A model generated the notes under the pieces. That model worked only from the letters and a program-made list of their open reading frames with translations. It did no database searches and had not been told where the DNA came from. From NCBI GenBank assembly GCA_037127795.1, contig JBAXXQ010000001.1, positions 471,198 through 513,686 on the forward strand: 42,489 nt of DNA. The letters run 5' to 3'. Below are positions 1,502 through 39,641 of this stretch, piece after piece. The translations under genes and the position numbers were made by a program. How positions within the stretch are numbered: position 1 is the stretch's first letter; each line of letters opens with the position of its first letter. Source of the DNA: a bacterium. Its GTDB lineage: Bacteria > Patescibacteriota > Minisyncoccia > Phycocordibacterales > UBA9973.

Positions 1502-1831
1502 TTAACCTATACGTAAAAAGAAAAGGAAGCCTATTAATAAAAAAAGAAGAAATCCTGAAATTATTACTGATAAGCTTATTAAACAAGCAAATAATGTTTT
1601 AATATTTGTTTTTAATTTAATAATTTTATAAAAAAAATAAAAACTAATTACTGGTACTATTACTAAAATAGTTAACCATATCAAAGATATAATTATTGAA
1701 TCTGCATTTTGATTGAAAAAATTTTTAGATATTAAAAACCAACTACCATAACATATTGGCCACCATATTAGATATACCACTCCTATAAATAATACTTTTT
1801 TCCACCATGTTGTAATTTTATTTTGCTCCAT
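1502..1831 (-). CDS. Small 3-TM membrane protein, tandem paralogue 5
   Basis: MEQNKITTWWKK N-terminus and three hydrophobic segments; homologous to neighbours. Confidence 0.85.
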   Translation of the reverse strand: MEQNKITTWWKKVLFIGVVYLIWWPICYGSWFLISKNFFNQNADSIIISLIWLTILVIVPVISFYFFYKIIKLKTNIKTLFACLISLSVIISGFLLFLLIGFLFFLRIG

Positions 1832-1901
1832 ATTATTTTAAAACTAACTTATTTCTTGTGACCTATTCATATTTTTATCTTAAGGTGTATTATAAGCTAC
1901 T

Positions 1902-2201
1902 TTACATATAGAAAAAAGAACCTAGCTCAATAAAAAGAAATAATAAAAAGAAAACTGTAATAAAATTTAAAATAAAAAGTTTTTTTAAATTTATGTTAGT
2001 TTTTTTATTTAAATAAAAAGGTAGATAATAAGCAGATCCGACTGGTAAAATAACTAAATAAAAAATCCAATAAAATAGCAGTAACCAATTTGGACTTTTT
2101 CCACTTAATAAATTAAAAGGTGATAAAAAAGTACTCAAGTAAAAAATTACGAATAATAGTAAGTAAATTTTAATTATTTCTAAAATCTTATTTTTTTTCA
2201 T
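1902..2201 (-). CDS. Small 3-TM membrane protein, divergent tandem paralogue 4
   Basis: MKKNKI start, same size and hydrophobicity pattern, conserved Pro in TM2 (ILPVGS); lacks TTWWKK. Confidence 0.75.
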   Translation of the reverse strand: MKKNKILEIIKIYLLLFVIFYLSTFLSPFNLLSGKSPNWLLLFYWIFYLVILPVGSAYYLPFYLNKKTNINLKKLFILNFITVFFLLFLFIELGSFFYM

Positions 2202-2206
2202 ATATT

Positions 2207-2530
2207 TTAACCAATCTCTGGATGCATTTGAGATAATCCTATTAAAAGTACACCTATTAACCCCAAAATTACAATAAGAGTTATTAATGTATAAAAAACT
2301 CTTTGATTTAAGTCATAAATCTTAGTAATTTTTCCACCAATCCAAAAAGCTGATATAGGACTAATTAAAATAAGTATTCCTGAAAGTATATTTAAAAAAG
2401 AATTATTAACTCCTTCTGGTTTAATCGACTGAAAAGTAAAAATACCAAAACAAATAATCCACCAAAAAATATAAATAATTAAAATAAGTAATACTTTTTT
2501 CCACCATGTTGTAATTTTATTTTGCTCCAT
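2207..2530 (-). CDS. Small 3-TM membrane protein, tandem paralogue 3
   Basis: MEQNKITTWWKK from ATG 2530 (ORF track starts at 2536); three TMs. Confidence 0.85.
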   Translation of the reverse strand: MEQNKITTWWKKVLLILIIYIFWWIICFGIFTFQSIKPEGVNNSFLNILSGILILISPISAFWIGGKITKIYDLNQRVFYTLITLIVILGLIGVLLIGLSQMHPEIG

Positions 2531-2538
2531 ATTCACTA

Positions 2539-2871
2539 TTAATAACCACTAAAGATTATAAAAATGATAGATAGGATATTAAACATAACACCTAAAAAAA
2601 TGATAAAAGAAATAATCTTATAAAAAAGTTGCTCTTTTATAAAAATCATATCTATTATTTTTTTTCCAATATAAAAACCCAAAAATGGAACAATTACAGT
2701 CGCATAAAAAATAATAATGCCTGCTACTACATGAGAATCACTGTCTGGTTTTTTAGAAAAAAAATCTTGTAAAAAGAAAAGTAATCCCCCATAAAAAATC
2801 AACCACCAAGCAATATACACCCCTCCTATAAGTAATATCTTTTTCCACCAAGTTGTAATTTTATTTTTCAT
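2539..2871 (-). CDS. Small 3-TM membrane protein, tandem paralogue 2
   Basis: MKNKITTWWKK N-terminus; three TMs. Confidence 0.85.
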   Translation of the reverse strand: MKNKITTWWKKILLIGGVYIAWWLIFYGGLLFFLQDFFSKKPDSDSHVVAGIIIFYATVIVPFLGFYIGKKIIDMIFIKEQLFYKIISFIIFLGVMFNILSIIFIIFSGY

Positions 2872-2888
2872 AATTACTATATAATTTA

Positions 2889-3212
2889 TTATACTATTTT
2901 AAAAGAAGATAAACCAACTAAAACATAGAATAACCACAAAGAGCATATTAAGTACAAAAAATGTGTAAAATAAAGTAATTTTATCTCAATTTTTGTAATT
3001 TTACTTATTTTATATGGAATTAAAAAACTTAATACAGGAATAATTCCAAAAAAATAAACAGGTGCACTATTAGATATAGTATCTGATAAATTATTTATAC
3101 TATTATTAAAATAAAAAACTGGTATTCCGTAAAAAATTACCCACCAAGTTGTATAGATACTGGTTATTAACAATGATTTTTTCCACCATGTTGTAATTTT
3201 ATTTTGCTCCAT
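2889..3212 (-). CDS. Small 3-TM membrane protein, tandem paralogue 1
   Basis: MEQNKITTWWKK N-terminus; starts 9 nt after the lipase-like gene stop. Confidence 0.85.
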   Translation of the reverse strand: MEQNKITTWWKKSLLITSIYTTWWVIFYGIPVFYFNNSINNLSDTISNSAPVYFFGIIPVLSFLIPYKISKITKIEIKLLYFTHFLYLICSLWLFYVLVGLSSFKIV

Positions 3213-3221
3213 ATATATAGT

Positions 3222-6200
3222 CTACAATATAATTAATTTTTTGATAAATTGTAATACTCGCACATACCAGGGATATTTTTTGGGTATTTCTGGTAGGGTA
3301 TTATTTTGTGAAAGTGTGTTTGTCGAAGTACTTTGTACAATCTTAGTATCTTGCACTTTTTTATGTTTTATATCACCGGTCTTTTTATCTCCTAGTACTA
3401 CCAATTTTTCTGGGATAGTACCTTGCTTTTCTTCTTTTGAAATAATAATTTCTGTTTTATCTTTTTCTACATCAATAGGTTTTATTCCACCATGGTTTTG
3501 TATTTGAGATATTATTGGAGTACTTAAAGAATCTTTTGCAAATACTGTACTATCCACCACCCCATCACCGTTTTCATCAAGCGCAACACTATAGCTAGTA
3601 TTTTGCGCACTTATATCCATATGTGCCTTCATAGACAAACTATCTATAGGGAGCTTGGTAAAATATGCACTACTAGTAACAACATCTTGAGTATCTATCT
3701 TATGTATATACATATCGTATGTACCCATATGCTCTGCAGTATTTACTATTTTGTATTGAGGGCCATCTGGTAAATATGCGTATTTTTGATCTTCAATAAT
3801 ATTGTAGGTGACATTCGGTATGCTGTACTCAATACTACCATCAGGTAGTGGGCCAGTATGATTCCCCTTATCGTCATAAATCTGTAAAGTAACAGGACTA
3901 TGATTTTCTATTGAAGTCCCAGACTGTAAACAAATATCTGGACTACTAGAAAACGAATTGTTTGTATCTATACTTTTTCCAGAAAGAATATTTACTATCG
4001 CATTTCGTATTCCTTCTACAGAAGGAAGCTCTGCATGGCTTCCTATATTTGAATAAAAATGTTGACCTTGGTTTATAAAATTTGCACTCTTGAGAGGTAC
4101 TGTTTCATCTCCTTCTACATACCCAATACTAAATGCTTCAATATATGGGAAATATGCACCTTTAGTAATATTTATATTTTGTATTGTCTTTGTACTACAC
4201 CCAGCAAAATCATACACATGGGTATTTTTGTATATAGGGGTATTATCAACCATATTATGCAAGATATCTGCGTAATTAAACATATCAGCATTTCTTCCAG
4301 AATTGATCATAAGATTTTTTGTATCTTCAATATCTAAATTAGTAGTATTTAAACTTACATAACTACCAAATTGTGCGCTTGGTAAAAGCTCATAGATAGA
4401 TGGCATATTTTGAGAAATTGATTTTATTCTTGTTTGACTCAAAATATTAATACCTAGTCCACCTATACCTAAATTATCTCCATACATAAGTGCCTTAAAT
4501 GCTTTTGGTGCACCAAGATGTGGTGTACCTACAAAAAATAAATTATCTATGTTTTGGTCCCCATATTCTGCAATATAGCGTTTTGTAATAAGTCCGCCCA
4601 TACTATGCGCAATAATATCTATACTATCATATCCAGTATCTTGCATTACTTGATCTATTTTTTGTTTCAATTTATCTGCACTTGTTTTACTATCAAAACG
4701 CCAATCGTATGGAAATACGAATAAGTCGGTATTTTCTACATACCCATCTTTATTTTTCAAATCTGCTATTAGGTAATCAAAAGTATGTGTAAATGCTGCA
4801 GATCTAATAATATCCCCTGTTACTATATGGTAACCAGGATCTTCTGTACCATCATATTTTAATGATAAAGGATTCAAAAAATGATCAAATAAATTAGTAA
4901 AAAGTTTAAACAAGCTAGGCCAAATTTCTTCATTATTATCATACGCTTTTAGAAGTTGTGTCCCAGAAATTCCTGGAATAATAATCACCGGCACACGAGA
5001 ATTTTTGGGATCGTGCCGCAAGAATGGCGCAAAATTCACTACACTTGGATCAGGCACAAAGCTATCTATGCTTGGACCATCTTTTGTCCCCCACCAGTTT
5101 TTTGAAATATCTAAACCAGGCCCTATATACAATACATTGAGATTATTTGTATCATGAATACTATTATTTTTTATTTCAGAATCTGCTGATTGATCAAAAA
5201 TACGCAATGCAAATGCTGTCGTATTATATATTTCACTATCGTGCATTTGTATAGAGACAGTACTACCTTGCTGTCCATCAGTCTCTATTCCTTGTCCGAC
5301 ATCATGTATTTTTACATGTGATACAACAAGGCTCGAGCCTGGATATATAGTAATCCCAGCATTTCCATTTTTTATTTCTGTATTGGTAATCTGTGCAGTA
5401 GAAGAATTACCAGACATGATTCCCATCCAGCTTGCTTTGTCTATATCGCTATCTTGGATATGTAACGTGCTCGCATCAAAACCACTAATACCAGTGTTTG
5501 CATTTTTTATATGGACTGTATTGAGTGAAAGATTTGTATTTGAAATACTTATTGCAGTATTAGTCGTAATATCAATACTGGTATTAGTGAAAGTAGCGAT
5601 AGTATCCGCAAGTACAATTGCATTATTGGTACTACTTACTACAGACGAGTCAATCAAATCTATATGTGATTTTGAAAATACATATATCCCAATATCGCAA
5701 TCAAGAATACTAATATTATCAATATGAAGCGTACTTGTATCTCCCAAAACCCCTGTATTTGCTCCAGATATGGCTGTGTGAGATATAGTCGCTGTACTAT
5801 CATACAGCGATACACCGCCACTATTCATATCTATATAACTAAATACCGCATCGCCACCATATACAACTATTTCATATTTATTCCCATCAAATTGCACATG
5901 ACTATCTGGATTACCTTGTATATGAATACTTCCCAAAACAAGCATATCTGCACCATCTGCAAAATATAATATTGCGCCCAGATCTATAGCTAAATCAGTA
6001 CCTTCTGACACAGTCGATCTTCCATATAGACTATAGCTCCCATCTCCACCAGTAAGTGTATTACTATCAGCAATAGTACTACCTTCTACTATTTTCCAAC
6101 CTTGTATACCTGTTTGTACAAAACTAGTACCAGTATGCACAAAACGCGTAGCGAAGGTGATTTGTGCAGGAATTTTTACAGAAGTAAAAGTAGTTTGCTG

Positions 6201-7084: not shown

Positions 7085-7714
7085 TTACAAAACATCTACC
7101 GCGAATCCTTTTTCTGTTGCGAGTTTTACAAACACTTCTTTTGTATCAGGTGTTTTGTCATAATGCATAGGGACGATAGCACATATATGCCTAAAAGTAG
7201 AAACAAATGCAAGAGCTTCTTCGGGTCCAAATGTGTAATGACCACCGACAGGGATAAGTGCGAGATCTACTTCTAAATCTACAACATCCATACCAGACGG
7301 ATAATACATATCTCCTGCAAAATAAATTTTCTTCGCATCGACTTCAATAAGAAAGCCAAAATTTTCTAATGGGCGGAGTGTTGCATTGGGACCATGATCC
7401 ACATCAAAAAATGAAATCTTGATACCTTGTATATCTATAGTTTCTCCGACTTTGACTTCTGTGATTTCTGTATCAATTTCTTCTTCTCCAAGGAGTTCGA
7501 TACATTCTCGATTGAGATATAATTTTTTGGGAGCGATCTTCTTTACTTGTGGTATTGCAAAATGGTCACCATGTAAATGAGAGCTTAGCATAGCGTCTAC
7601 CATGTGCTCATGTACATTTTCTGCTGGAGAAAAAGCTCCTATATCAATACCAAGCTTGTATCCTGCATCTGTCTCAATAATAAATCCTGATTGTTCTAGT
7701 TTTTGTATTTTCAT
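7085..7714 (-). CDS. MBL-fold metallo-hydrolase
   Basis: SHLHGDH (HxHxDH), DHG, YFAGD, LIPVGGHYT, PMHY motifs. Confidence 0.93.
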   Translation of the reverse strand: MKIQKLEQSGFIIETDAGYKLGIDIGAFSPAENVHEHMVDAMLSSHLHGDHFAIPQVKKIAPKKLYLNRECIELLGEEEIDTEITEVKVGETIDIQGIKISFFDVDHGPNATLRPLENFGFLIEVDAKKIYFAGDMYYPSGMDVVDLEVDLALIPVGGHYTFGPEEALAFVSTFRHICAIVPMHYDKTPDTKEVFVKLATEKGFAVDVL

Positions 7715-7734
7715 ATGATTATTTTAGTATATAT

Positions 7735-7759
7735 AAAAAGCGCTCCATATGGAGCGCTT
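7735..7759 (-). terminator. Intrinsic terminator (perfect 22 bp palindrome)
   Basis: AAGCGCTCCATATGGAGCGCTT at 7738..7759, with an A-run giving a U-tail on the minus strand after the 7776 stop. Confidence 0.75.
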
Positions 7760-7775
7760 AATTGTAGTTATTCTT

Positions 7776-8183
7776 TTACGATTTGTGCACTCGGTGAAAA
7801 TCTCTAACAAAGCGTATTTCTTCTATACCTATAGTACTCAGATGTACTGGTATAGTTAGCGCGACTATATCTGTCACAATACTAGTCCCTTTGTCTGTTT
7901 CCCAAAAAAATCCTTCATCAAGACTAATACTTTTTAATTCCAAATTATTTATTTTGTGTTTAGTGGTATCTTTTTTATTTCTTAAATACCACCCGTCAAA
8001 AATATTAGCTATTTGAAATACATTTTTAGATTCAGTTTTGAAATATACTTGTGAAAAATTTTTTCCTAAATGTGAAAGCGGGAAAAAATTAAAACTTTCT
8101 GCATGATACAAATTGATACCTCTATCACTATTTAATCGAAGACCAATAGCAGCAGGGGTACTTAATACTTCTATATTTTTCAT
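7776..8183 (-). CDS. Hypothetical protein
   Basis: ORF 7776..8216; likely start ATG 8183 (MKNIEV...). No motif recognised. Confidence 0.65.
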   Translation of the reverse strand: MKNIEVLSTPAAIGLRLNSDRGINLYHAESFNFFPLSHLGKNFSQVYFKTESKNVFQIANIFDGWYLRNKKDTTKHKINNLELKSISLDEGFFWETDKGTSIVTDIVALTIPVHLSTIGIEEIRFVRDFHRVHKS

Positions 8184-8241
8184 TATATATGTTTTTGTTT
8201 GTAATAATAAAATCACAATAATACAAAAAAGTCAATTACTT

Positions 8242-32402: not shown

Positions 32403-33432
32403 AATTTTCTACAGCAAGTAATACTGGTTTATATTCTTCAAATGATTCTAATACAATACCGAGTCCCCGAGCAACTGCAGACAACGGCTCTTCTGCAATA
32501 AATACTGGAAGAGACACTGCTTCACTAATACAATCTGCAAGTCCTGGCATAAGTGCACCTCCACCAGTAAGGACAATACCACTATGTACCGTATCGCTCA
32601 TGAGCTCTGGTGGTGCTGTCTCAAGTACTTCTTTAATACCTGAAATAATATTTGCTACGCCGTCTTTCATAGCAATACGAATATCTCCATCGGTTACCAC
32701 AATACCGCGAGGAAGCCCTACACCGAGATCGCGACCGCGTACTTCGTACTCTTTGTGTTTACCATCGACAGTCCCTCCGATAGCGATTTTTACTTCTTCT
32801 GCTGTTTGATCTCCAATATATAGTTTGAATTGATCACGAATATAATCAATAATATTTTGATTAAAATGATCTCCTGCGACTTTGAGATTGATAGCACGAA
32901 CCATACCGCCGAGCGATATAAGCGCTATATCGGTAGTACCACCGCCAATATCTACAACACATGTTGCTTGGGCTTCAAGCACTGGGAGACGTACTCCAAC
33001 AGCTGCAGCCATAGCTTCTTCGACAAGGTGCACTTCTCTTGCGCCGGCATTGATAGCCGCATCATAGACTGCACGAGTCTCTACGTTGGTGATACCACTA
33101 GGGACACCGAGGAGTACTCGTGGCCGAAAAAATTTACTCGAAATTTTTTCGGCCTTTTTCAAAAAGTATGAAAGCATTTCTTCTGTCACTTCAAAATCAG
33201 ATACTACTCCACCTACGAGCGGTCGTATTATTTTGATATGCGCAGGAGTTTTGCCTGACATCAATTTTGCTTCATGTCCTACAGCAACAATCTGTCCTGT
33301 TTTTTGATTGATAGCAACAATAGAAGGTTCATTGATTACAATCCCGTGCCCTTTTACATACACAAGCGTATTTGCAGTACCGAGATCTATCCCGATATCA
33401 TTAGAAAATTTTTGATACAGTTTATCGAACAT
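32386..33432 (-). CDS. mreB: Actin-like MreB
   Basis: IGIDLGTANTLV, VVDIGGGTTD, VLTGGGAL. Confidence 0.97.
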   Translation of the reverse strand: MFDKLYQKFSNDIGIDLGTANTLVYVKGHGIVINEPSIVAINQKTGQIVAVGHEAKLMSGKTPAHIKIIRPLVGGVVSDFEVTEEMLSYFLKKAEKISSKFFRPRVLLGVPSGITNVETRAVYDAAINAGAREVHLVEEAMAAAVGVRLPVLEAQATCVVDIGGGTTDIALISLGGMVRAINLKVAGDHFNQNIIDYIRDQFKLYIGDQTAEEVKIAIGGTVDGKHKEYEVRGRDLGVGLPRGIVVTDGDIRIAMKDGVANIISGIKEVLETAPPELMSDTVHSGIVLTGGGALMPGLADCISEAVSLPVFIAEEPLSAVARGLGIVLESFEEYKPVLLAVENYADYF

Positions 33433-34672
33433 GAAGTATTTCTAATAATTCTGACTCAGTAATAATCCGACCCTCTTGTTCTGTTCGTTTTTTATATTCA
33501 AACCCTCCACTCGCAAGACTTCGAGGAGATACTACTACACGATGTGACATACCAAGCAAATCTGCATCTGCAAATTTTTCTCCAGCACTAGCATGTATAC
33601 GATCATCAAAAAGTACTTCGATACCAAGACCGGTAAGTTTTTCGTACAAAGCATTTGCTTCTTTTTCTAGACTATCTCCGAGACCAATAAGTTGCACAGT
33701 AAATGGTGCAACAGATTCTGGCCATACAATGCCTTTTTCATCTGAAAGAGTTTCTACAATAGTACCTATCAAACGAGTAATACCAATACCATATGAGCCC
33801 ATATATACAAGCTGCTCTTCTCCTTGATTATCTTTATAGGTAAGCTCAAAAGGCTCTGAGAATTTTGATCCTAGTGAAAAAATATTTCCTACTTCGATAG
33901 CTTTCTTTTGCACCAAACTATCTTTTGTAACACCTAGATCTACAAGTACTTCATCATTAAATACTTCTTCATTGATAGCAATCTTTTTTACCTCATCAAT
34001 ATAAATGGTATCTTCTCCTGCGTCTGAGATAGTTTGAAATTCATGAGAATACTTTGCAAAAGTCCCTCCTGAAGCAAATGTTATATAGGTATATGCACCG
34101 AGACCAACAGTGTCATAAATACGCATATATACATCTTTTATTTTTTCATAAAATGCATCATGTTCTTCTTTATTTTTTGAAAATGAATACAATGCTTTCC
34201 AGTAGAATTCTCGTCCACGCATAATACCAGACTTACTACGTACTTCATTTCTAAAAATAGTTTTGAAATCATACAAGTACAAAGGAAGATCTTTGTATGA
34301 ACTTACAAAATCTTTGAGTATATGAGAATATGCTTCTTCATTAGTAAAAGACAATCCTACTTCTGTACCATTTTTAAGTGTTGTCTTGAACCAATTGTCT
34401 ACTACAGCATCATCCCAACGATTTGTTTTTTCCCACACTTCTTTTGATTGTAATGCTGAAGTTTTCATTTCAACACCACCAATACTATTCATTTCTTTTT
34501 TTATAATATCAGTAATTTTGTCTGCAACACGCAAACCAAGAGGTAACAGTGTATATACCCCTGCCATTTCTTTATAAATAAAACCACCACGTATCAAAAG
34601 CTGTGCATTCTTTGAAACCTCGTCTTTTGGGGCCTCTTTTTTTGTTTTAGTGAAAAGGGTACTTTGTCTCAT
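33422..34672 (-). CDS. proS: Prolyl-tRNA synthetase (short form, apparently without INS editing domain)
   Basis: MRQSTLF, LLPLGLRV, FRNEVR..GIMRGREF, IEVGNIFSLG, MGSYGIGITR, GEKFADADLLG; 416 aa. Confidence 0.96.
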   Translation of the reverse strand: MRQSTLFTKTKKEAPKDEVSKNAQLLIRGGFIYKEMAGVYTLLPLGLRVADKITDIIKKEMNSIGGVEMKTSALQSKEVWEKTNRWDDAVVDNWFKTTLKNGTEVGLSFTNEEAYSHILKDFVSSYKDLPLYLYDFKTIFRNEVRSKSGIMRGREFYWKALYSFSKNKEEHDAFYEKIKDVYMRIYDTVGLGAYTYITFASGGTFAKYSHEFQTISDAGEDTIYIDEVKKIAINEEVFNDEVLVDLGVTKDSLVQKKAIEVGNIFSLGSKFSEPFELTYKDNQGEEQLVYMGSYGIGITRLIGTIVETLSDEKGIVWPESVAPFTVQLIGLGDSLEKEANALYEKLTGLGIEVLFDDRIHASAGEKFADADLLGMSHRVVVSPRSLASGGFEYKKRTEQEGRIITESELLEILHVR

Positions 34673-34748
34673 ATATAACTACATAATGCCACAAAAAGGC
34701 AAATAAAAAAAGCTCAATATCAAAATACTGAACTTTTTGTTCAAAAAA

Positions 34749-34916
34749 CTATTTTTTTATTATTTTCAACACCGAAACCCCCATAGCCATTACTAATACT
34801 TTATCAAATAAATCTACGAGGCTTGATTTAAAAACAATTCCAAAATAATTTTCATATAAACTTGTAACTATTACAAGAACTATCCAAAAAATTACCCATA
34901 AAGTTTTCTTATTCAT
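34749..34916 (-). CDS. Small 2-TM membrane protein (55 aa)
   Basis: Start ATG 34916 (MNKKTLWVIFW...), downstream of promoter TTGACT-17-TACTTT (34963..34935). Confidence 0.6.
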   Translation of the reverse strand: MNKKTLWVIFWIVLVIVTSLYENYFGIVFKSSLVDLFDKVLVMAMGVSVLKIIKK

Positions 34917-34958
34917 TTCTAATGATTTTTTATAAAAGTAACATATATGTATATAAAA

Positions 34959-35037
34959 GTCAAGTACCACAATAGCACAATATATAAAATAACAAATCCC
35001 CGACACAATTGCCGGAGATTACATAGTACGAATGAAA
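34959..35037. repeat. Cassette junction copy A (terminator hairpin + conserved spacer + next -35)
   Basis: 65/79 identical to 35452..35530 by manual alignment. Confidence 0.9.
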
Positions 35038-35038
35038 A

Positions 35039-35401
35039 TTATTCTGTTTTAAAACTTAAACCTCTTTCTTCTAAGCAGATTTGAAGATCTCTTAAATTCT
35101 TTTTTCCAACACCTGTAATTCCAGAAATTTGCTCTTTTTTAAAAAGGCAAACATCTTCTATATTATTTACCCCTATAGACTTGAGCGCATTAAACATTGT
35201 CACACTTAACGCATCAGAAGGAAGATTTTGAAGAGGTGTTGGAACAAGAAAATTGAAACATATTTTTTTCTTGTTAGAAAATAGATTTATGGCATCTAAA
35301 TTATCTTCTACATCAATTCCTTTTGTTTTTAAAAAAGAAACAATATCTTTTGTTTCAAGAGTAACCTCTACTCTTGAAACTGTTTTTGCTTTAATTTTCA
35401 T
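35039..35401 (-). CDS. Stand-alone RNA polymerase alpha-CTD-like protein
   Basis: C-terminal half LSVTMFNALKSIGV...GVGKKNLRDLQICLEERGLSF matches the alpha-CTD pattern LTVRSANCLK...LGKKSLTEI...LASRGLSL. Own promoter TTGACG-17-TATTAT. Confidence 0.8.
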   Translation of the reverse strand: MKIKAKTVSRVEVTLETKDIVSFLKTKGIDVEDNLDAINLFSNKKKICFNFLVPTPLQNLPSDALSVTMFNALKSIGVNNIEDVCLFKKEQISGITGVGKKNLRDLQICLEERGLSFKTE

Positions 35402-35451
35402 CTTTATTTAATTTTTGATTTGTATATATAATATAACTTTTATTACAATTC

Positions 35452-35530
35452 GTCAAGTACCATATCTACGCAATATATAAAATAACAAACCCCCGACACA
35501 ATTGCCGGGGGCTACATAACATAAATGAAA
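35452..35530. repeat. Cassette junction copy B
   Basis: Homologous to 34959..35037; its first 27 bp are identical to 37884..37910. Confidence 0.9.
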
Positions 35531-37792
35531 TCACCTTTTTAAATACTCTCCTTTTTTTCTACCAAAAACCTCATTGAATGTTTTTGAATAAACTCTTTGG
35601 AAGTCAACAGTATAAGGCCAAACAATAAATTTATTATCTTTTCTTGCTTTATCATATTCTTTTCCAGAAAAACTTTTTCCTTTGAAATGATCAAGTACTT
35701 TTTGATATAAATCTTTTTCTGATAAATATTCAATTTTGACGAGCTTTCCCTTATTGAAAAAGAATTCAGCAAAAGTTTTTGAATAAAGCCTTGAGAACAT
35801 ATCTTCATAAGGCCAAGAATAAAAATTATTTTCTTTCCTTACTTTTTCATACTGCGAACCGGTAAATTTCTCGTCTTTAAGATAAATTGCGACTTCTTTT
35901 CTAAGTTGCTCTTCTGATAGATAAGTAATCTGACGTTTTTGTTTTATACCAAAAAATATTTCCTTAAAATTTTTAGAGTAAGTATTATAGAGAAAACCAG
36001 AAGAAGGCCATCTAAAAAAAAATTTATCACGTTTTATTTTATCGTAATCTTTAATACTGAAACTTATTTTTCCTAAATGCCTAAAAACTTCTTTTTTAAG
36101 TTTTTTTTCTGATAAGAAGTTGTTAACCTTTCTTCCTGTAAAAAGTTCCCCAAATGTTTTTGAATAAACTCTTGGAAATTCAGTAGATCTTGCCCAAAAA
36201 ATAAAACTGTTATCTTTTTTTGCCTTATCATACTCTTTTTGTGTAAAAGATTTTCCGTTAAAATATTTACAAGTTTCTTTTTTAAGTTGTTCTTTAGATA
36301 AATAAGTTGTCTTATTATTTTTTTTCTTACCAAAGAATAATTCTTTAAAAGTTTTTGAATAAATTCTTGGAAATTCAGAATAATCAGGCCACTTATTAGA
36401 AAATAATAACTTTTTTACTTTCGTGTATTCACTTATAGTTAGTTTTTTTCCAATAAAATACCCCAGTACCTCTTTTTTAAACACTTCTTCACTAGACCAA
36501 ACCCTATATAAACGAGAATTCTTTTCTATCGCTTTCGCGATTTCGATCACCTCCAACTCTTCTGTGGAGAATTCAATATCGAATTCTTTTCCAGAAACAG
36601 TCAAAATAGATCTGTCTAGGACGCCAAGGTTTAGCTTAGAGCGAGTAATTTCAATAGATTGTGCAAGACTACTTACCATAACAAGCCTTTCAGCATTTGC
36701 TACAAAATCAAGCACTAAAGCAATTTTACCTTCTTGTAAACGCAAAACTCTTCCTAGTTGTTGGAAAAATACTCTTTTAGAATCAGTACAACGTAAGAAC
36801 ACTCCAATTTGCACATTAGGCACATCAATATCTTCGTTTAGCTTGTTCACCGAAACCAAAAATTGAATTTCGTTTTCGCGGAACTTTTTCATAAAAGTTT
36901 GATTGTGACCGCGTGATTTTTGGGAATGTATAACACCTGCACTTTTTCCATCAGCAATAATTTGATGATATACCCTATCTGCATGTATGATATTCTCGCA
37001 ATAAATTAATGTTTGCTTTGAAATATCAGTGCATGCATACGAATAAATTTCATCAAAAGTTTCTCTATCCAATGAGTCAATAAATAAATTTTCATTTATT
37101 TGCTTCATTGAAATATTTTTTCTTTCTGCAACAACATATTGAAACATTTGTTTCAATTGTTTTCTGTTTAAACCAGAAGACTTCACAAGATATTTCACTT
37201 GCGACATCCATCCGTTAATCATAGCTTCTTCAAAAGATATTTCATAGATAACTTTTTCAAAAATCTCTAGGATATCTTTTTCATCTTCCCTGTCAGGAGT
37301 TGCTGTCATGCCTATTTTAGGAGCATTGAAATAATCAATAACTTCTTTGTAGGTTACTGCTTGTCCGTGATGTGCTTCGTTTACGATAATAAATTTAAAA
37401 TGATCCTCGTTAAAGTAGTTGTACCATTTTTCATGGTGGTTGTTCATACTTTGATACGAGGCAAATACTATATCAGCTCGTTCAGGATCAGTATCTTTAT
37501 CATCGCCAAAAAAACTTGCGCAGATAATACGTTCGTCTGCAAAGATTTGTTCAAATTTTTCGCGCGCTTGGTCTAATCCCTCATTTTCATTGTAGAGATA
37601 TAGTCCTTTCATGTGATATATTTGAATACAATCCCTTGCGATAAACGCAGCCTCAGTACTTTTACCCGTACTGGTGGGCTGGATGATTAATCCATTTTCA
37701 CCAGCCAAGATATTCTCGATAGCAATATCAACAATAGGTTGCTGATATTCACGAGGTACTTTTGGCACTTCTTGAATTAGTAATTCTTTCAT
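35531..37792 (-). CDS. SF2 (DExH/ResIII-like) helicase with five C-terminal ~63 aa repeats
   Basis: QPTSTGKS, VNEAHH, GMTATPDRED, LNEDIDVP, QQLGRVLR; repeats YLSxxxLxKxV...Y.K.....WP....F.R.YSKTF.E.F.G. Promoter TTGACT-17-TATAAT at 37888..37860. Confidence 0.9.
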   Translation of the reverse strand: MKELLIQEVPKVPREYQQPIVDIAIENILAGENGLIIQPTSTGKSTEAAFIARDCIQIYHMKGLYLYNENEGLDQAREKFEQIFADERIICASFFGDDKDTDPERADIVFASYQSMNNHHEKWYNYFNEDHFKFIIVNEAHHGQAVTYKEVIDYFNAPKIGMTATPDREDEKDILEIFEKVIYEISFEEAMINGWMSQVKYLVKSSGLNRKQLKQMFQYVVAERKNISMKQINENLFIDSLDRETFDEIYSYACTDISKQTLIYCENIIHADRVYHQIIADGKSAGVIHSQKSRGHNQTFMKKFRENEIQFLVSVNKLNEDIDVPNVQIGVFLRCTDSKRVFFQQLGRVLRLQEGKIALVLDFVANAERLVMVSSLAQSIEITRSKLNLGVLDRSILTVSGKEFDIEFSTEELEVIEIAKAIEKNSRLYRVWSSEEVFKKEVLGYFIGKKLTISEYTKVKKLLFSNKWPDYSEFPRIYSKTFKELFFGKKKNNKTTYLSKEQLKKETCKYFNGKSFTQKEYDKAKKDNSFIFWARSTEFPRVYSKTFGELFTGRKVNNFLSEKKLKKEVFRHLGKISFSIKDYDKIKRDKFFFRWPSSGFLYNTYSKNFKEIFFGIKQKRQITYLSEEQLRKEVAIYLKDEKFTGSQYEKVRKENNFYSWPYEDMFSRLYSKTFAEFFFNKGKLVKIEYLSEKDLYQKVLDHFKGKSFSGKEYDKARKDNKFIVWPYTVDFQRVYSKTFNEVFGRKKGEYLKR

Positions 37793-37883
37793 TTTATTAT
37801 GTTTTGAAAGGACAAATAGGCAATATCGCCAATATTTTTAATATAATGTAATTTGTTATATTATATACATATTTTGCATAAAA

Positions 37884-37910
37884 GTCAAGTACCATATCTA
37901 CGCAATATAT
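37884..37910. repeat. Cassette junction copy C (27 bp perfect direct repeat)
   Basis: GTCAAGTACCATATCTACGCAATATAT, also at 35452..35478. Confidence 0.95.
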
Positions 37911-37929
37911 GCTATATTTTGCAAGCCTA

Positions 37930-38020
37930 AATCAGCCAGCCTCTACCGAGGTTTTGGCCTGGTAAAAGCAGAATTATTCAGGTTAATAAGGGGGTAAGAC
38001 AACTTCCCTCTGCTACAGAT
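37930..38020 (+). promoter_or_regulatory. Structured rpsB 5' leader (possible S2 autoregulatory element)
   Basis: Hairpin CCAG-CCTC-TACC-GAGG-TTTTGG and GCAGA...TCTGC pairing just before the rpsB start. Confidence 0.5.
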
Positions 38021-38025
38021 AAAAT

Positions 38026-38700
38026 ATGAAAAAAGAAATATCTCTTACAAACCTCATGGAGGCGGGTGTTCACTATGGATACTCACGTACTCGAAGACAC
38101 CCTTCAGTATCTCCATTCGTATACGGAACAAAAAATGGTACAGACATTATCGATCTCGAAAAGACTGTACCTCAAATCCAAAATGCAGCAGCATTTTTGG
38201 AAACACTTGCAGCAAATGGTAAAACAATCCTTATTGTAGGCGTAAAACCAGAAGCACAAGAGATCACTCGTGAAATGGCAGCAAAACTTCACCAACCATA
38301 CGTTACAGAACGTTGGATCGGAGGAATGCTTACAAACTTCACAGAAATCAAGCGTCGTATCCAAAAACTCGAAGATATGCGTGAAAAGCGTGTAAATGGA
38401 GATTTTGAAAAATACACAAAGAAAGAACAAATCCTTCTTACTCGTGAAATGGCACGTCTCGACAAATACTTTGCTGGTATGGTAGGTATGCACAAAATGC
38501 CAGAAGCAGTGCTTGTTATCGACCCTAAGAAAGAACACATTGCAGTAACAGAAGCACACAAGCTTTCTATTCCTGTAATCACTATCGGTAGTACAGACTG
38601 TTCTGTACGTAATATCGCCTACCCTATCGTTGCAAACGATAGTGCGACATCAAGTATCGGTGCAATCATTACTATCCTTACAGAAGCTTTCAAAGCGTAG
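38026..38700 (+). CDS. rpsB: 30S ribosomal protein S2
   Basis: LMEAGVHYG, IIDLEKT, ERWIGGMLTNF, IVANDSA. Confidence 0.98.
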   Translation: MKKEISLTNLMEAGVHYGYSRTRRHPSVSPFVYGTKNGTDIIDLEKTVPQIQNAAAFLETLAANGKTILIVGVKPEAQEITREMAAKLHQPYVTERWIGGMLTNFTEIKRRIQKLEDMREKRVNGDFEKYTKKEQILLTREMARLDKYFAGMVGMHKMPEAVLVIDPKKEHIAVTEAHKLSIPVITIGSTDCSVRNIAYPIVANDSATSSIGAIITILTEAFKA

Positions 38701-39562: not shown

Positions 39563-39565
39563 AAT

Positions 39566-39641
39566 TGGAGCCGCTTCTCAGACTTGAACTGAGGACCTTC
39601 GCTTTACAAAAGCGTTGCTCTACCAACTGAGCTAAAGCGGC
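39566..39641 (-). tRNA. tRNA-Thr (TGT)
   Basis: 76 nt cloverleaf GCCGCTTTAGCTCAGTTGGTAGAGC...TTTGTAA...TTCAAGT...GCGGCTCCA with encoded CCA. Confidence 0.97.

Follow-up and report, generated by a model that had tools for sequence, protein, structure and literature searches.

A variable gene slot between rpsB and proS in a Patescibacteria genome, with stacked genes and duplicated terminator-promoter joints resembling phage PeSLs

The rpsB-proS interval was analysed in a 42,489-nucleotide stretch (the window) of a genome from the Patescibacteriota (lineage UBA9973; GenBank assembly GCA_037127795.1, contig JBAXXQ010000001.1, positions 471,198 to 513,686). The interval is 3,353 bases long and holds three genes on the minus strand, encoding a superfamily 2 (SF2) helicase, a protein with a domain like the C-terminal domain of the RNA polymerase alpha subunit (aCTD), and a 55-residue membrane protein (memb55). 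With moderate confidence, the locus is read as a hyperplastic slot of the minimal-mobile-element type, whose terminator-promoter joints resemble the promoter and stem-loop repeats of T4-type phages (PeSLs) and arose from recombination among slot alleles. The slot would be bounded on the left by a conserved promoter, Px, and on the right by a T-tract and the proS promoter, and would here contain three stacked one-gene transcription units. In each joint, a duplicate of T1, the helicase terminator, would be fused after 11 nt to a duplicate of the upstream half of Px, -35 box included. Patescibacteria (the candidate phyla radiation) have very small genomes with few recognisable mobile elements, and the gain and loss of their accessory genes is poorly understood.

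The helicase unit is bracketed by a perfect 27-bp direct repeat, as had been noted from the sequence alone. The minus-strand 27-mer ATATATTGCGTAGATATGGTACTTGAC is present in identical copies at 35452-35478 (copy B) and 37884-37910 (copy C). A third 27-mer at 34959-34985 (copy A) differs solely in an internal 8-nt block, which reads TGCTATTG instead of CGTAGATA, so that six of its eight positions differ between copies. The motif GTCAAGTACCA-N8-CAATATAT occurred three times in the window, against 0.00 expected from shuffled sequences; a search with a 9-nt gap gave no match, the true gap being 8 nt. Copies A and B lie within longer homologous joints on the minus strand, joint A at 34959-35037 and joint B at 35452-35530, which are identical at 65 of 79 positions (82%). 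Joint B comprises 17 nt after the helicase stop codon, the T1 stem-loop (35488-35513), the tail TTTGTTATTTT and copy B, and joint A comprises the corresponding stem-loop T1' (34995-35020), a tail and copy A with the TGCTATTG block. The sequence-only reading had described both the homology of the two 79-nt junctions and the minus-strand order of three units, with their promoters and terminators, between proS and rpsB. All of these features were found.

According to folding analyses, both T1 and T1' are perfect 11-bp stems capped by a 4-nt loop and followed by a U-tract, with predicted energies of -19.5 kcal/mol (z -4.6) for T1 and -14.5 kcal/mol (z -3.7) for T1'. The two hairpins are distinguished by one compensatory double change of C-G to U-A, and their other differences are single changes compatible with wobble pairing. 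When the T1 stem was aligned across four sequences, 44 of 44 cells paired, in agreement with the stem-preserving swap that had been proposed between the two terminators. A third predicted terminator, T2, lies with its T-tract 3' of memb55 at 34700-34738 (minus strand) and has a 14-bp A/U-rich stem (34707-34738; -12.4 kcal/mol, z -3.6) unrelated to T1 and T1'. An Rfam search of the interval returned no family; the best match (E=0.65) was at the level of chance.

All three 27-mers have TTGAC as their last bases, with a -10 box 17 nt further on (TATAAT, TATTAT and a weak TACTTT, from a promoter scan together with direct reading), bearing out the earlier claim that each junction ends in the next -35 box. 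Copy C (37884-37910, minus strand) supplies the -35 box and 21 upstream bases of Px, and the Px spacer, the -10 box TATAAT (37860-37865) and the helicase 5' untranslated region (UTR) follow at 37793-37883 on the same strand (scan score 11/12; predicted start near 37853). The core promoter of unit 2 (35402-35451, minus strand) has the -10 box TATTAT at 35428-35433 (scan score 10/12; predicted start near 35421). That of unit 3 (34917-34958, minus strand) was read from the sequence and was unlisted by the scan; its weak -10 box TACTTT lies at 34935-34940 and its predicted start near 34928. Hairpins with U-tracts and putative -35 and -10 boxes can be shown in the right places, with the stems kept by compensatory change.

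The aCTD unit is visibly assembled from local parts. Its promoter half is identical to copy C of Px (27/27), and 44 of 52 terminator positions agree with T1, in an alignment that takes in the 17 nt preceding the stem on its 5' side. Each joint would stop the upstream transcript and start the next one. Because the joints would stop and restart transcription in this way, the stacked genes would be insulated as well as expressed, and proS would be shielded from read-through.

The source of the 27-mer was sought in two related species, S2 (L083 and L091-L093) and S3 (L003, L085 and L090), S1 being the window species, a member of the Paceibacteria/Nomurabacteria group. S2 and the window are about 90-92% identical in DNA and 76% identical at 4-fold sites. 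S3 is more distant: its ProS is 81% identical to that of the window, and 4-fold sites are 46% identical against a chance expectation of 35%. Beside rpsB, S2 matches the 27-mer at 27 of 27 positions (L083), and the spacer, -10 box, 5' UTR and helicase that come next are also those of the window. S3 lacks the helicase, yet carries the same upstream sequence together with TGGTACTTGAC and the TATATAATATA -10 region at the orthologous place, where the predicted Px precedes, and would drive, a 58-aa membrane ORF (open reading frame). Because S2 and S3 keep this sequence at the orthologous place beside rpsB, the 27-mer is read as the upstream half of Px. To judge from the sequence, it is the -35 box and 21 upstream bases of a resident promoter that stands back to back with the rpsB promoter region. 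The latter belongs to the rpsB leader or "L-arm" (37911-38025, plus strand), which contains a candidate extended -10 element for rpsB, TGCTATATT, at 37911-37919, a putative promoter assignment, and whose GCTTGCA(A/G)AATATAGC stretch is conserved in the window, L083 and L003.

All 19 positions of the 27-mer outside the block match in L003, and these 19 positions are identical (19/19) across the three paralogous and two orthologous copies, while neutral sites are 46-76% identical. The Px core is orthologous to the promoter core of L003 (p=0.003) and of L083 (p<0.001). The rpsB-adjacent copy is a complete promoter, orthologous to that of the relatives. Copy C is the original, and copies B and A are partial Px copies fused to copies of the helicase terminator. 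The proposal that the sequences past the -35 boxes are unrelated stood in part: the ORFs are unrelated and no significant overall similarity was detected, but the -10/+1 stretch of unit 2, beside copy B, weakly resembles Px (p=0.03 against L003).

The slot lies between conserved neighbours. rpsB (ribosomal protein S2; 38026-38700, plus strand), the left flank, is transcribed outward and was assigned from the ORF list and from the Ribosomal_S2 match of the identical gene in L001. proS (prolyl-tRNA synthetase; 33422-34672, minus strand) forms the right flank. The gene order tsf<-rpsB / proS->mreB->mreC is kept in about 30 relatives, and the GC content of the slot (0.30) lies below that of the flanks (0.38-0.41). 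In many (distant) relatives the interval is empty, spanning 83-260 bp with no gene; in others it has a length of 410-2083 bp and contains small, unrelated ORFs. Where ProS is 77-95% identical to that of the window, at least seven other contents were found, almost none of them with a database match, and at least eight content states exist in all. The three-gene content is confined to the window species, and the sister species S2 has the helicase alone. Indeed, the number of cassettes varied as a count among relatives had been expected to reveal, with zero, one or three genes in the interval and different genes by lineage. The slot genes tested were orphans, with no Pfam family and no close relatives.

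Turnover is most evident in the S3 group, where five lineages with ProS 89-95% mutually identical have five different genes directly upstream of proS. These are a 58-aa membrane ORF in L003, a 46-aa membrane ORF in L098, a memb55 homologue in L094, and unrelated genes of at least 96 aa in L095 and at least 149 aa in L097. The right boundary, a T-tract with the proS promoter region TTTTTTTATTTGCCTTTTTGTGGCATTATGTAGTTATAT (34673-34706, minus strand), is nearly identical in six lineages. The six include the window and share the sequence GC/TTTTTTTATTTGCCTTTTTATGGCATTAT...ATG, to the left of which hairpins and genes are unrelated. The rpsB-proS interval fits the definition of a minimal mobile element, with two conserved genes and different whole-gene cassettes between them in different lineages. 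The short contigs of L094, L095, L097 and L098 all end inside the slot, 200-520 bp upstream of proS. Contig ends within the slots of the S3 group hint at assembly-graph branching, that is, at population heterogeneity at the locus.

The stack itself was recovered in two independent assemblies (L001 and L002), which have the same arrangement at 99.97-100% identity, and is therefore not an assembly artefact. Short contigs of related species do often break inside the slot, and a mis-joining of strain variants could in principle create repeats; as three independent assemblies from different samples agree on the 3.35-kb structure, this explanation is effectively refuted and its probability is negligible.

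A different account of the same repeats would be integron-like or of the cis-mobilizable-element (CIME) type, with the 27-mer or the 79-nt joint as an att site at which a recombinase encoded elsewhere serially inserts promoter-carrying cassettes and regenerates the site. The perfect repeat around the helicase unit, the homologous 79-nt joints that end units, the orphan nature of the cassettes (as in many integrons) and the differing gene content of relatives all agree with it. The block pattern, in which copy C equals copy B and copy A is ancestral-like, would also be expected of serial insertion beside rpsB with the crossover in ATATATTG. No integrase-type domain (tyrosine or serine recombinase) was detected in Pfam scans of the three slot proteins and of 30 ORFs of at least 100 aa at 1-25.8 kb of the window, and none appears among the Pfam domains precomputed for L083 over the orthologous 22 kb. 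The sole recombinase-like gene found in the window is a 305-aa ORF at 8259-9176 (plus strand) with HTH_23, rve and rve_3 domains, an insertion sequence (IS)-type DDE transposase 26 kb from the slot. The absence of a recombinase that had been asserted thus holds at the locus itself, with this transposase ORF to be added for the window.

Nor were the sites of such a system present. No RYYYAAC/GTTRRRY pair of attC R-boxes 35-130 nt apart was found on either strand of 34673-38025, consistent with the earlier statement that neither intI nor attC is present, and T1 is a perfect short terminator hairpin, attC sites being imperfect palindromes. A scan for dispersed copies of the motif, proposed as a check of the att-like site, gave only the three in the window, with none further in the 42-kb window, in 98 related loci or in viral contigs; in Joint Genome Institute (JGI) metagenomes the motif was found only at orthologous S3 sites, besides five unrelated chance matches. 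The viral contigs scanned also contained no helicase relatives. The single-gene slots of L003 and L098 have one 27-mer copy each, with the T-tract and proS promoter as right boundary, and the S2 helicase unit has the repeat on its left only (four contigs). Because S2, L003 and L098 hold a single copy, insertion at the slot does not generally regenerate a site, and because the promoter core beside rpsB is orthologous across species, the promoter is resident and was not imported with a cassette. The repeat also does not flank an element in every carrier, as a CIME or an integrative and mobilizable element (IME) would require. The regenerated att-like site is not supported: the 27-mer is half of a resident promoter. 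What survives of the integron analogy is the variable cassette slot, not an att site served by a recombinase, and an integron-like origin is considered very unlikely.

The favoured reading, a slot shaped by recombination among its alleles, would place the origin of the stack in exchanges between alternative slot alleles and shared regulatory sequences. These could proceed by homologous recombination via the 27-79-nt repeats, by an illegitimate join, or by both. Such events could stack, delete or exchange units, and no dedicated recombinase would be needed, a behaviour that has been proposed for the PeSL cassettes of T4-type phages and the minimal mobile elements of Neisseria.

Duplicated regulatory sequences were also found elsewhere. 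In L011 (ProS 71% identical to that of the window), the tgt-uvrB interval contains a helicase homologue (41% identical) and, next to it, an orphan gene of 155 aa. Both genes have copies of one promoter in front of them (7690-7744 and 10031-10086) and copies of one terminator behind (9962-10003 and 10559-10602). The promoter repeat is identical at 36 of 38 positions over its core and at 86% over 56 nt, the terminator repeat is 84% identical over 44 nt with an identical 19-nt core, and a truncated promoter remnant stands before uvrB (10615-10628). Both sequences are unlike those of the window, and the same topology appears to have arisen independently. In the rpsB-proS slot of L009, two copies of a 44-nt terminator (4978-5021 and 6065-6108; 93% identical) enclose an orphan membrane gene of 267 aa, and a compensatory change of G-C to A-T distinguishes them. 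In the window itself, a 48-nt terminator-like hairpin is present as a direct duplicate (10534-10581 and 11617-11664; 88% identical) that brackets two divergent orphan ORFs (10611-11039, minus strand, and 11160-11609, plus strand) with no Pfam match.

The recurrence of terminator duplications around inserted DNA at these places would also be expected if one-off accidents of replication or repair (template switching at the strong hairpin, or a tandem duplication whose inner ORF was later replaced) had created the repeats, with selection retaining the regulatory pieces and no role in mobility. The stems kept by compensatory change, the invariance of the 19 non-block positions in all copies and species, as for a constrained promoter, and the lack of any sign of ongoing mobility in exact look-ups of the aCTD and memb55 sequences agree with such an origin. 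A single plain tandem duplication does not explain the repeats, because the ORFs between them are unrelated and homology is limited to the joints; this outcome had been named beforehand as one that would undo the cassette interpretation. The swapping of a 2.3-kb ORF exactly between a -35 box and a stop codon would be contrived, and accidents leave unexplained both the fast turnover of content at ProS identities of 89-95% and the appearance, twice, of a stacked topology with a helicase homologue. This explanation is unlikely on the whole, but it has to be taken seriously.

The conservation of the 27-mer could alternatively reflect co-regulation, the element serving as an operator or UP-type element for the RNA polymerase alpha-CTD, the aCTD protein or another factor, a function that would be compatible with the other readings. 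The region from -35 to -57 is where UP elements and class I activators bind, and the 27-mer spans these positions. Its 19 invariant positions beside neutral sites of 46-76% identity, and the presence of an alpha-CTD-like orphan in the stack, point in the same direction. The element is, however, at no other promoter in the 42-kb window, its 8-nt block differs at six of eight positions, and the joint duplicates the terminator too, which would be needless for a regulator site. The binding is putative only, and the structural model of the aCTD protein is of low confidence. Co-regulation is improbable as the explanation of the identity of the 27-mer across the three promoters.

The orphan in question (35039-35401, minus strand) is a protein of 120 aa with a match to Pfam PF03118 (30 bits). 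Its C-terminal 55 aa resemble the alpha-CTD of RNA polymerase (helix-hairpin-helix), and its N-terminal half has no relatives. A word-index search for homologues returned only the protein itself, and a HMMER search gave 70 matches, all to the C-terminal domain and many in proteins with several such repeats; the AlphaFold model was poor (pLDDT 45). The possibility that the gene is a decayed second copy of the helicase was rejected, as the two proteins show no similarity.

The helicase (753 aa; 35531-37792, minus strand) has an N-terminal ResIII domain and Helicase_C (Pfam). Its C-terminus (about 35534-36500) consists of five novel tandem repeats of about 62-65 aa each. The homologues (n=264) are mainly from metagenome-assembled genomes (MAGs) of Patescibacteria and vary in their C-terminal repeat modules. 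Within this family the core is retained and C-terminal modules are swapped; relatives (P0054 and others) have INT_rpt (PF14882) or zinc-ribbon (PF14311) modules. The INT_rpt family found in homologues did not match the C-terminal repeats of the window helicase. An assignment to a defence system was judged unwarranted, since PADLOC and PHROGs matched only the generic helicase core. In one S2 sample (L092, 1903-4163) the helicase is split into four ORFs (173, 153, 227 and 197 aa), possibly by gene decay or sequencing error. The third slot gene, memb55 (34749-34916, minus strand), encodes 55 aa with two hydrophobic segments and was called as a gene in L001 and L002. The homologue at the same position in L094 is partial (14 of 25 residues identical, E=3e-7).

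A comparison of S1 and S2 bears on how units are gained and lost. In S2, T1 is followed by 51 unique bases and then by proS, in four independent contigs from different samples, and no remnant of the 27-mer was found in a search of the 51-bp filler. The indel that separates the two species has its start no more than 1 nt from the copy B edge (boundary 35478). The proS-promoter boundary is common to the window genome and S3 and is not present in S2; on the right, it is therefore S2 whose state is derived. By contrast, where the indel meets the repeat edge on the left, it looks like a gain in the window genome. A second S1/S2 indel lies near the slot: S2 has a gene for a 366-aa pyridoxal phosphate (PLP)-dependent decarboxylase (L083, 7098-8227) between a tRNA gene (window 39569-39641) and tsf, and the window genome does not (site 39563-39567).

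L003, L085 and L090 have the same 8-nt block as copy A, and L098 agrees with it at six of eight positions. The idea that an S3-like donor recently supplied the memb55/proS-promoter segment was rejected, as proS and rpsB contain no mosaic tract. Their identity is uniform, at 86-100% to S2 and 64-89% to S3. A sliding-window comparison of proS/mreB and rpsB/tsf likewise detected no foreign tract, which neither proves nor excludes older exchanges.

Several observations weigh against an origin of the stack by recombination among slot alleles. Exact look-ups of the aCTD and memb55 sequences found full stacks only, with no excision product, circle or polymorphic stack. The three copies of the promoter half and the two of T1 are all at one locus, within the 42 kb analysed of a 580-kb genome. 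The longest run without a mismatch is 27 bp between copies B and C and 19 bp between joints A and B, and tracts of 19-27 bp are marginal for RecA-type recombination. Intergenic direct repeats of this kind are also rare, being found in 1.37 Mb of related loci only in L009, L011, L035 and the window once the low-complexity match of L040 and the palindrome array of L054 are left out of the count. The difference between S1 and S2 is not a clean repeat-to-repeat deletion, as S2 has 51 bases of its own and its right boundary lies inside the proS promoter. Copy A has the S3 block (8/8; p about 0.002 if neutral) where copies B and C and S2 have another, a distribution that fits no simple history. Finally, promoter and terminator activity in the slot is predicted.

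In the array set aside in L054, a MAG of the Moraniibacteriota, a perfect 28-bp palindrome (ATTATGATATTATTGATAATATCATAAT and variants) occurs twelve times over 5 kb (7964-13040) on both sides of proS, where no copy would be expected by chance. Elsewhere in the window, at 1502-3212, four tandem paralogous ORFs of about 109 aa have a GC content of 0.23-0.25 and no Pfam match.

The stronger proposal that the 79-nt joint is itself the recombination site of an integrase-free chromosomal platform for gene capture, working through mini-circles and DNA uptake at a fixed slot beside rpsB, is speculative and probably wrong. Cassettes able to express themselves, each made of a promoter half, an orphan gene and a terminator, would leave through the joints as mini-circles and then return to the slot or pass between cells. 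If true, the proposal would make the locus a bacterial counterpart of PeSL shuffling in phages, with the L011 stack as a second instance. The more modest reading favoured here, a hyperplastic slot with PeSL-like joints, describes a sharply bounded slot beside core genes whose content differs between lineages with ProS 89-95% identical, and in which several foreign genes could be stacked through repeated use of a terminator and promoter taken from the locus itself. Should the joints mediate exchange, a mechanism so far described for T4-type phages would extend to bacterial chromosomes; if they do not, the locus would still be a clear example of new genes obtaining ready-made expression signals. 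Px and the proS promoter boundary could serve as markers for tracking gene turnover in metagenomes.

Among known processes, homology-facilitated illegitimate recombination during natural transformation (PMC8116780, PMC3410848) could have anchored the right end of an incoming allele in proS and joined the left end illegitimately after T1. On a purely inferential argument, both the "ancestral" block of copy A and the S3-like proS promoter of the window would then be explained. It differs from the case at hand in that the flanking proS and rpsB carry no S3-like tract.

Integrons and attC-site clusters without an integron integrase (CALINs) share with the slot the mostly orphan single-gene cassettes, a repeated hairpin sequence at the 3' ends and a cassette number that varies among relatives. 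The slot has no IntI, which CALINs lack by definition, and differs from both in having no attC architecture or R boxes. Integron cassettes "rarely contain promoters" (Cury et al. 2016, PMC4889954). Each unit of the window has its own predicted promoter and terminator, in contrast to mostly promoterless cassettes under a common promoter Pc; furthermore, the repeat of the window belongs to a resident promoter, and single-cassette carriers have no second site.

The minimal mobile elements of Neisseria (Saunders & Snyder 2002; Snyder et al. 2007; definition quoted in PMC3082526) are closer. They resemble the slot in their two conserved flanking genes, lineage-specific whole-gene cassettes and lack of mobility genes, and exchange by homologous recombination in the flanks, which in such elements follows DNA uptake, is plausible here. 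The definition, in the form quoted there, does not include internal duplicated regulatory joints or the stacking of units, by which the window differs.

The joints themselves find their nearest comparison in the PeSLs of T4-type phages (Arbiol et al. 2010, PMC2839356; Comeau et al. 2014, PMC4122927). These repeats, about 100 bp long, each contain a sigma-70 promoter with an AT-rich region upstream, together with a stem-loop. They flank orphan ORFs of hyperplastic regions in about 50 copies per phage genome, and insertion, deletion and the formation of mini-circles by homologous recombination have been proposed for them. The window case is in a Patescibacteria chromosome and not in a phage, and its two to three copies are confined to one locus, against about 50 in a phage genome. 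Its homology covers only the terminator and the upstream half of the promoter, with uninterrupted identity of 19-27 bp. In both, close relatives differ by indels at or beside the repeats, although here the left boundary between S1 and S2 is at copy B and the right boundary is not at a repeat. In both, small orphan genes occupy a hyperplastic region between conserved flanking genes with no dedicated recombinase. The joints of the window also combine, in intergenic positions, a predicted stem-loop terminator, an AT-rich upstream region and a predicted sigma-70-type promoter.

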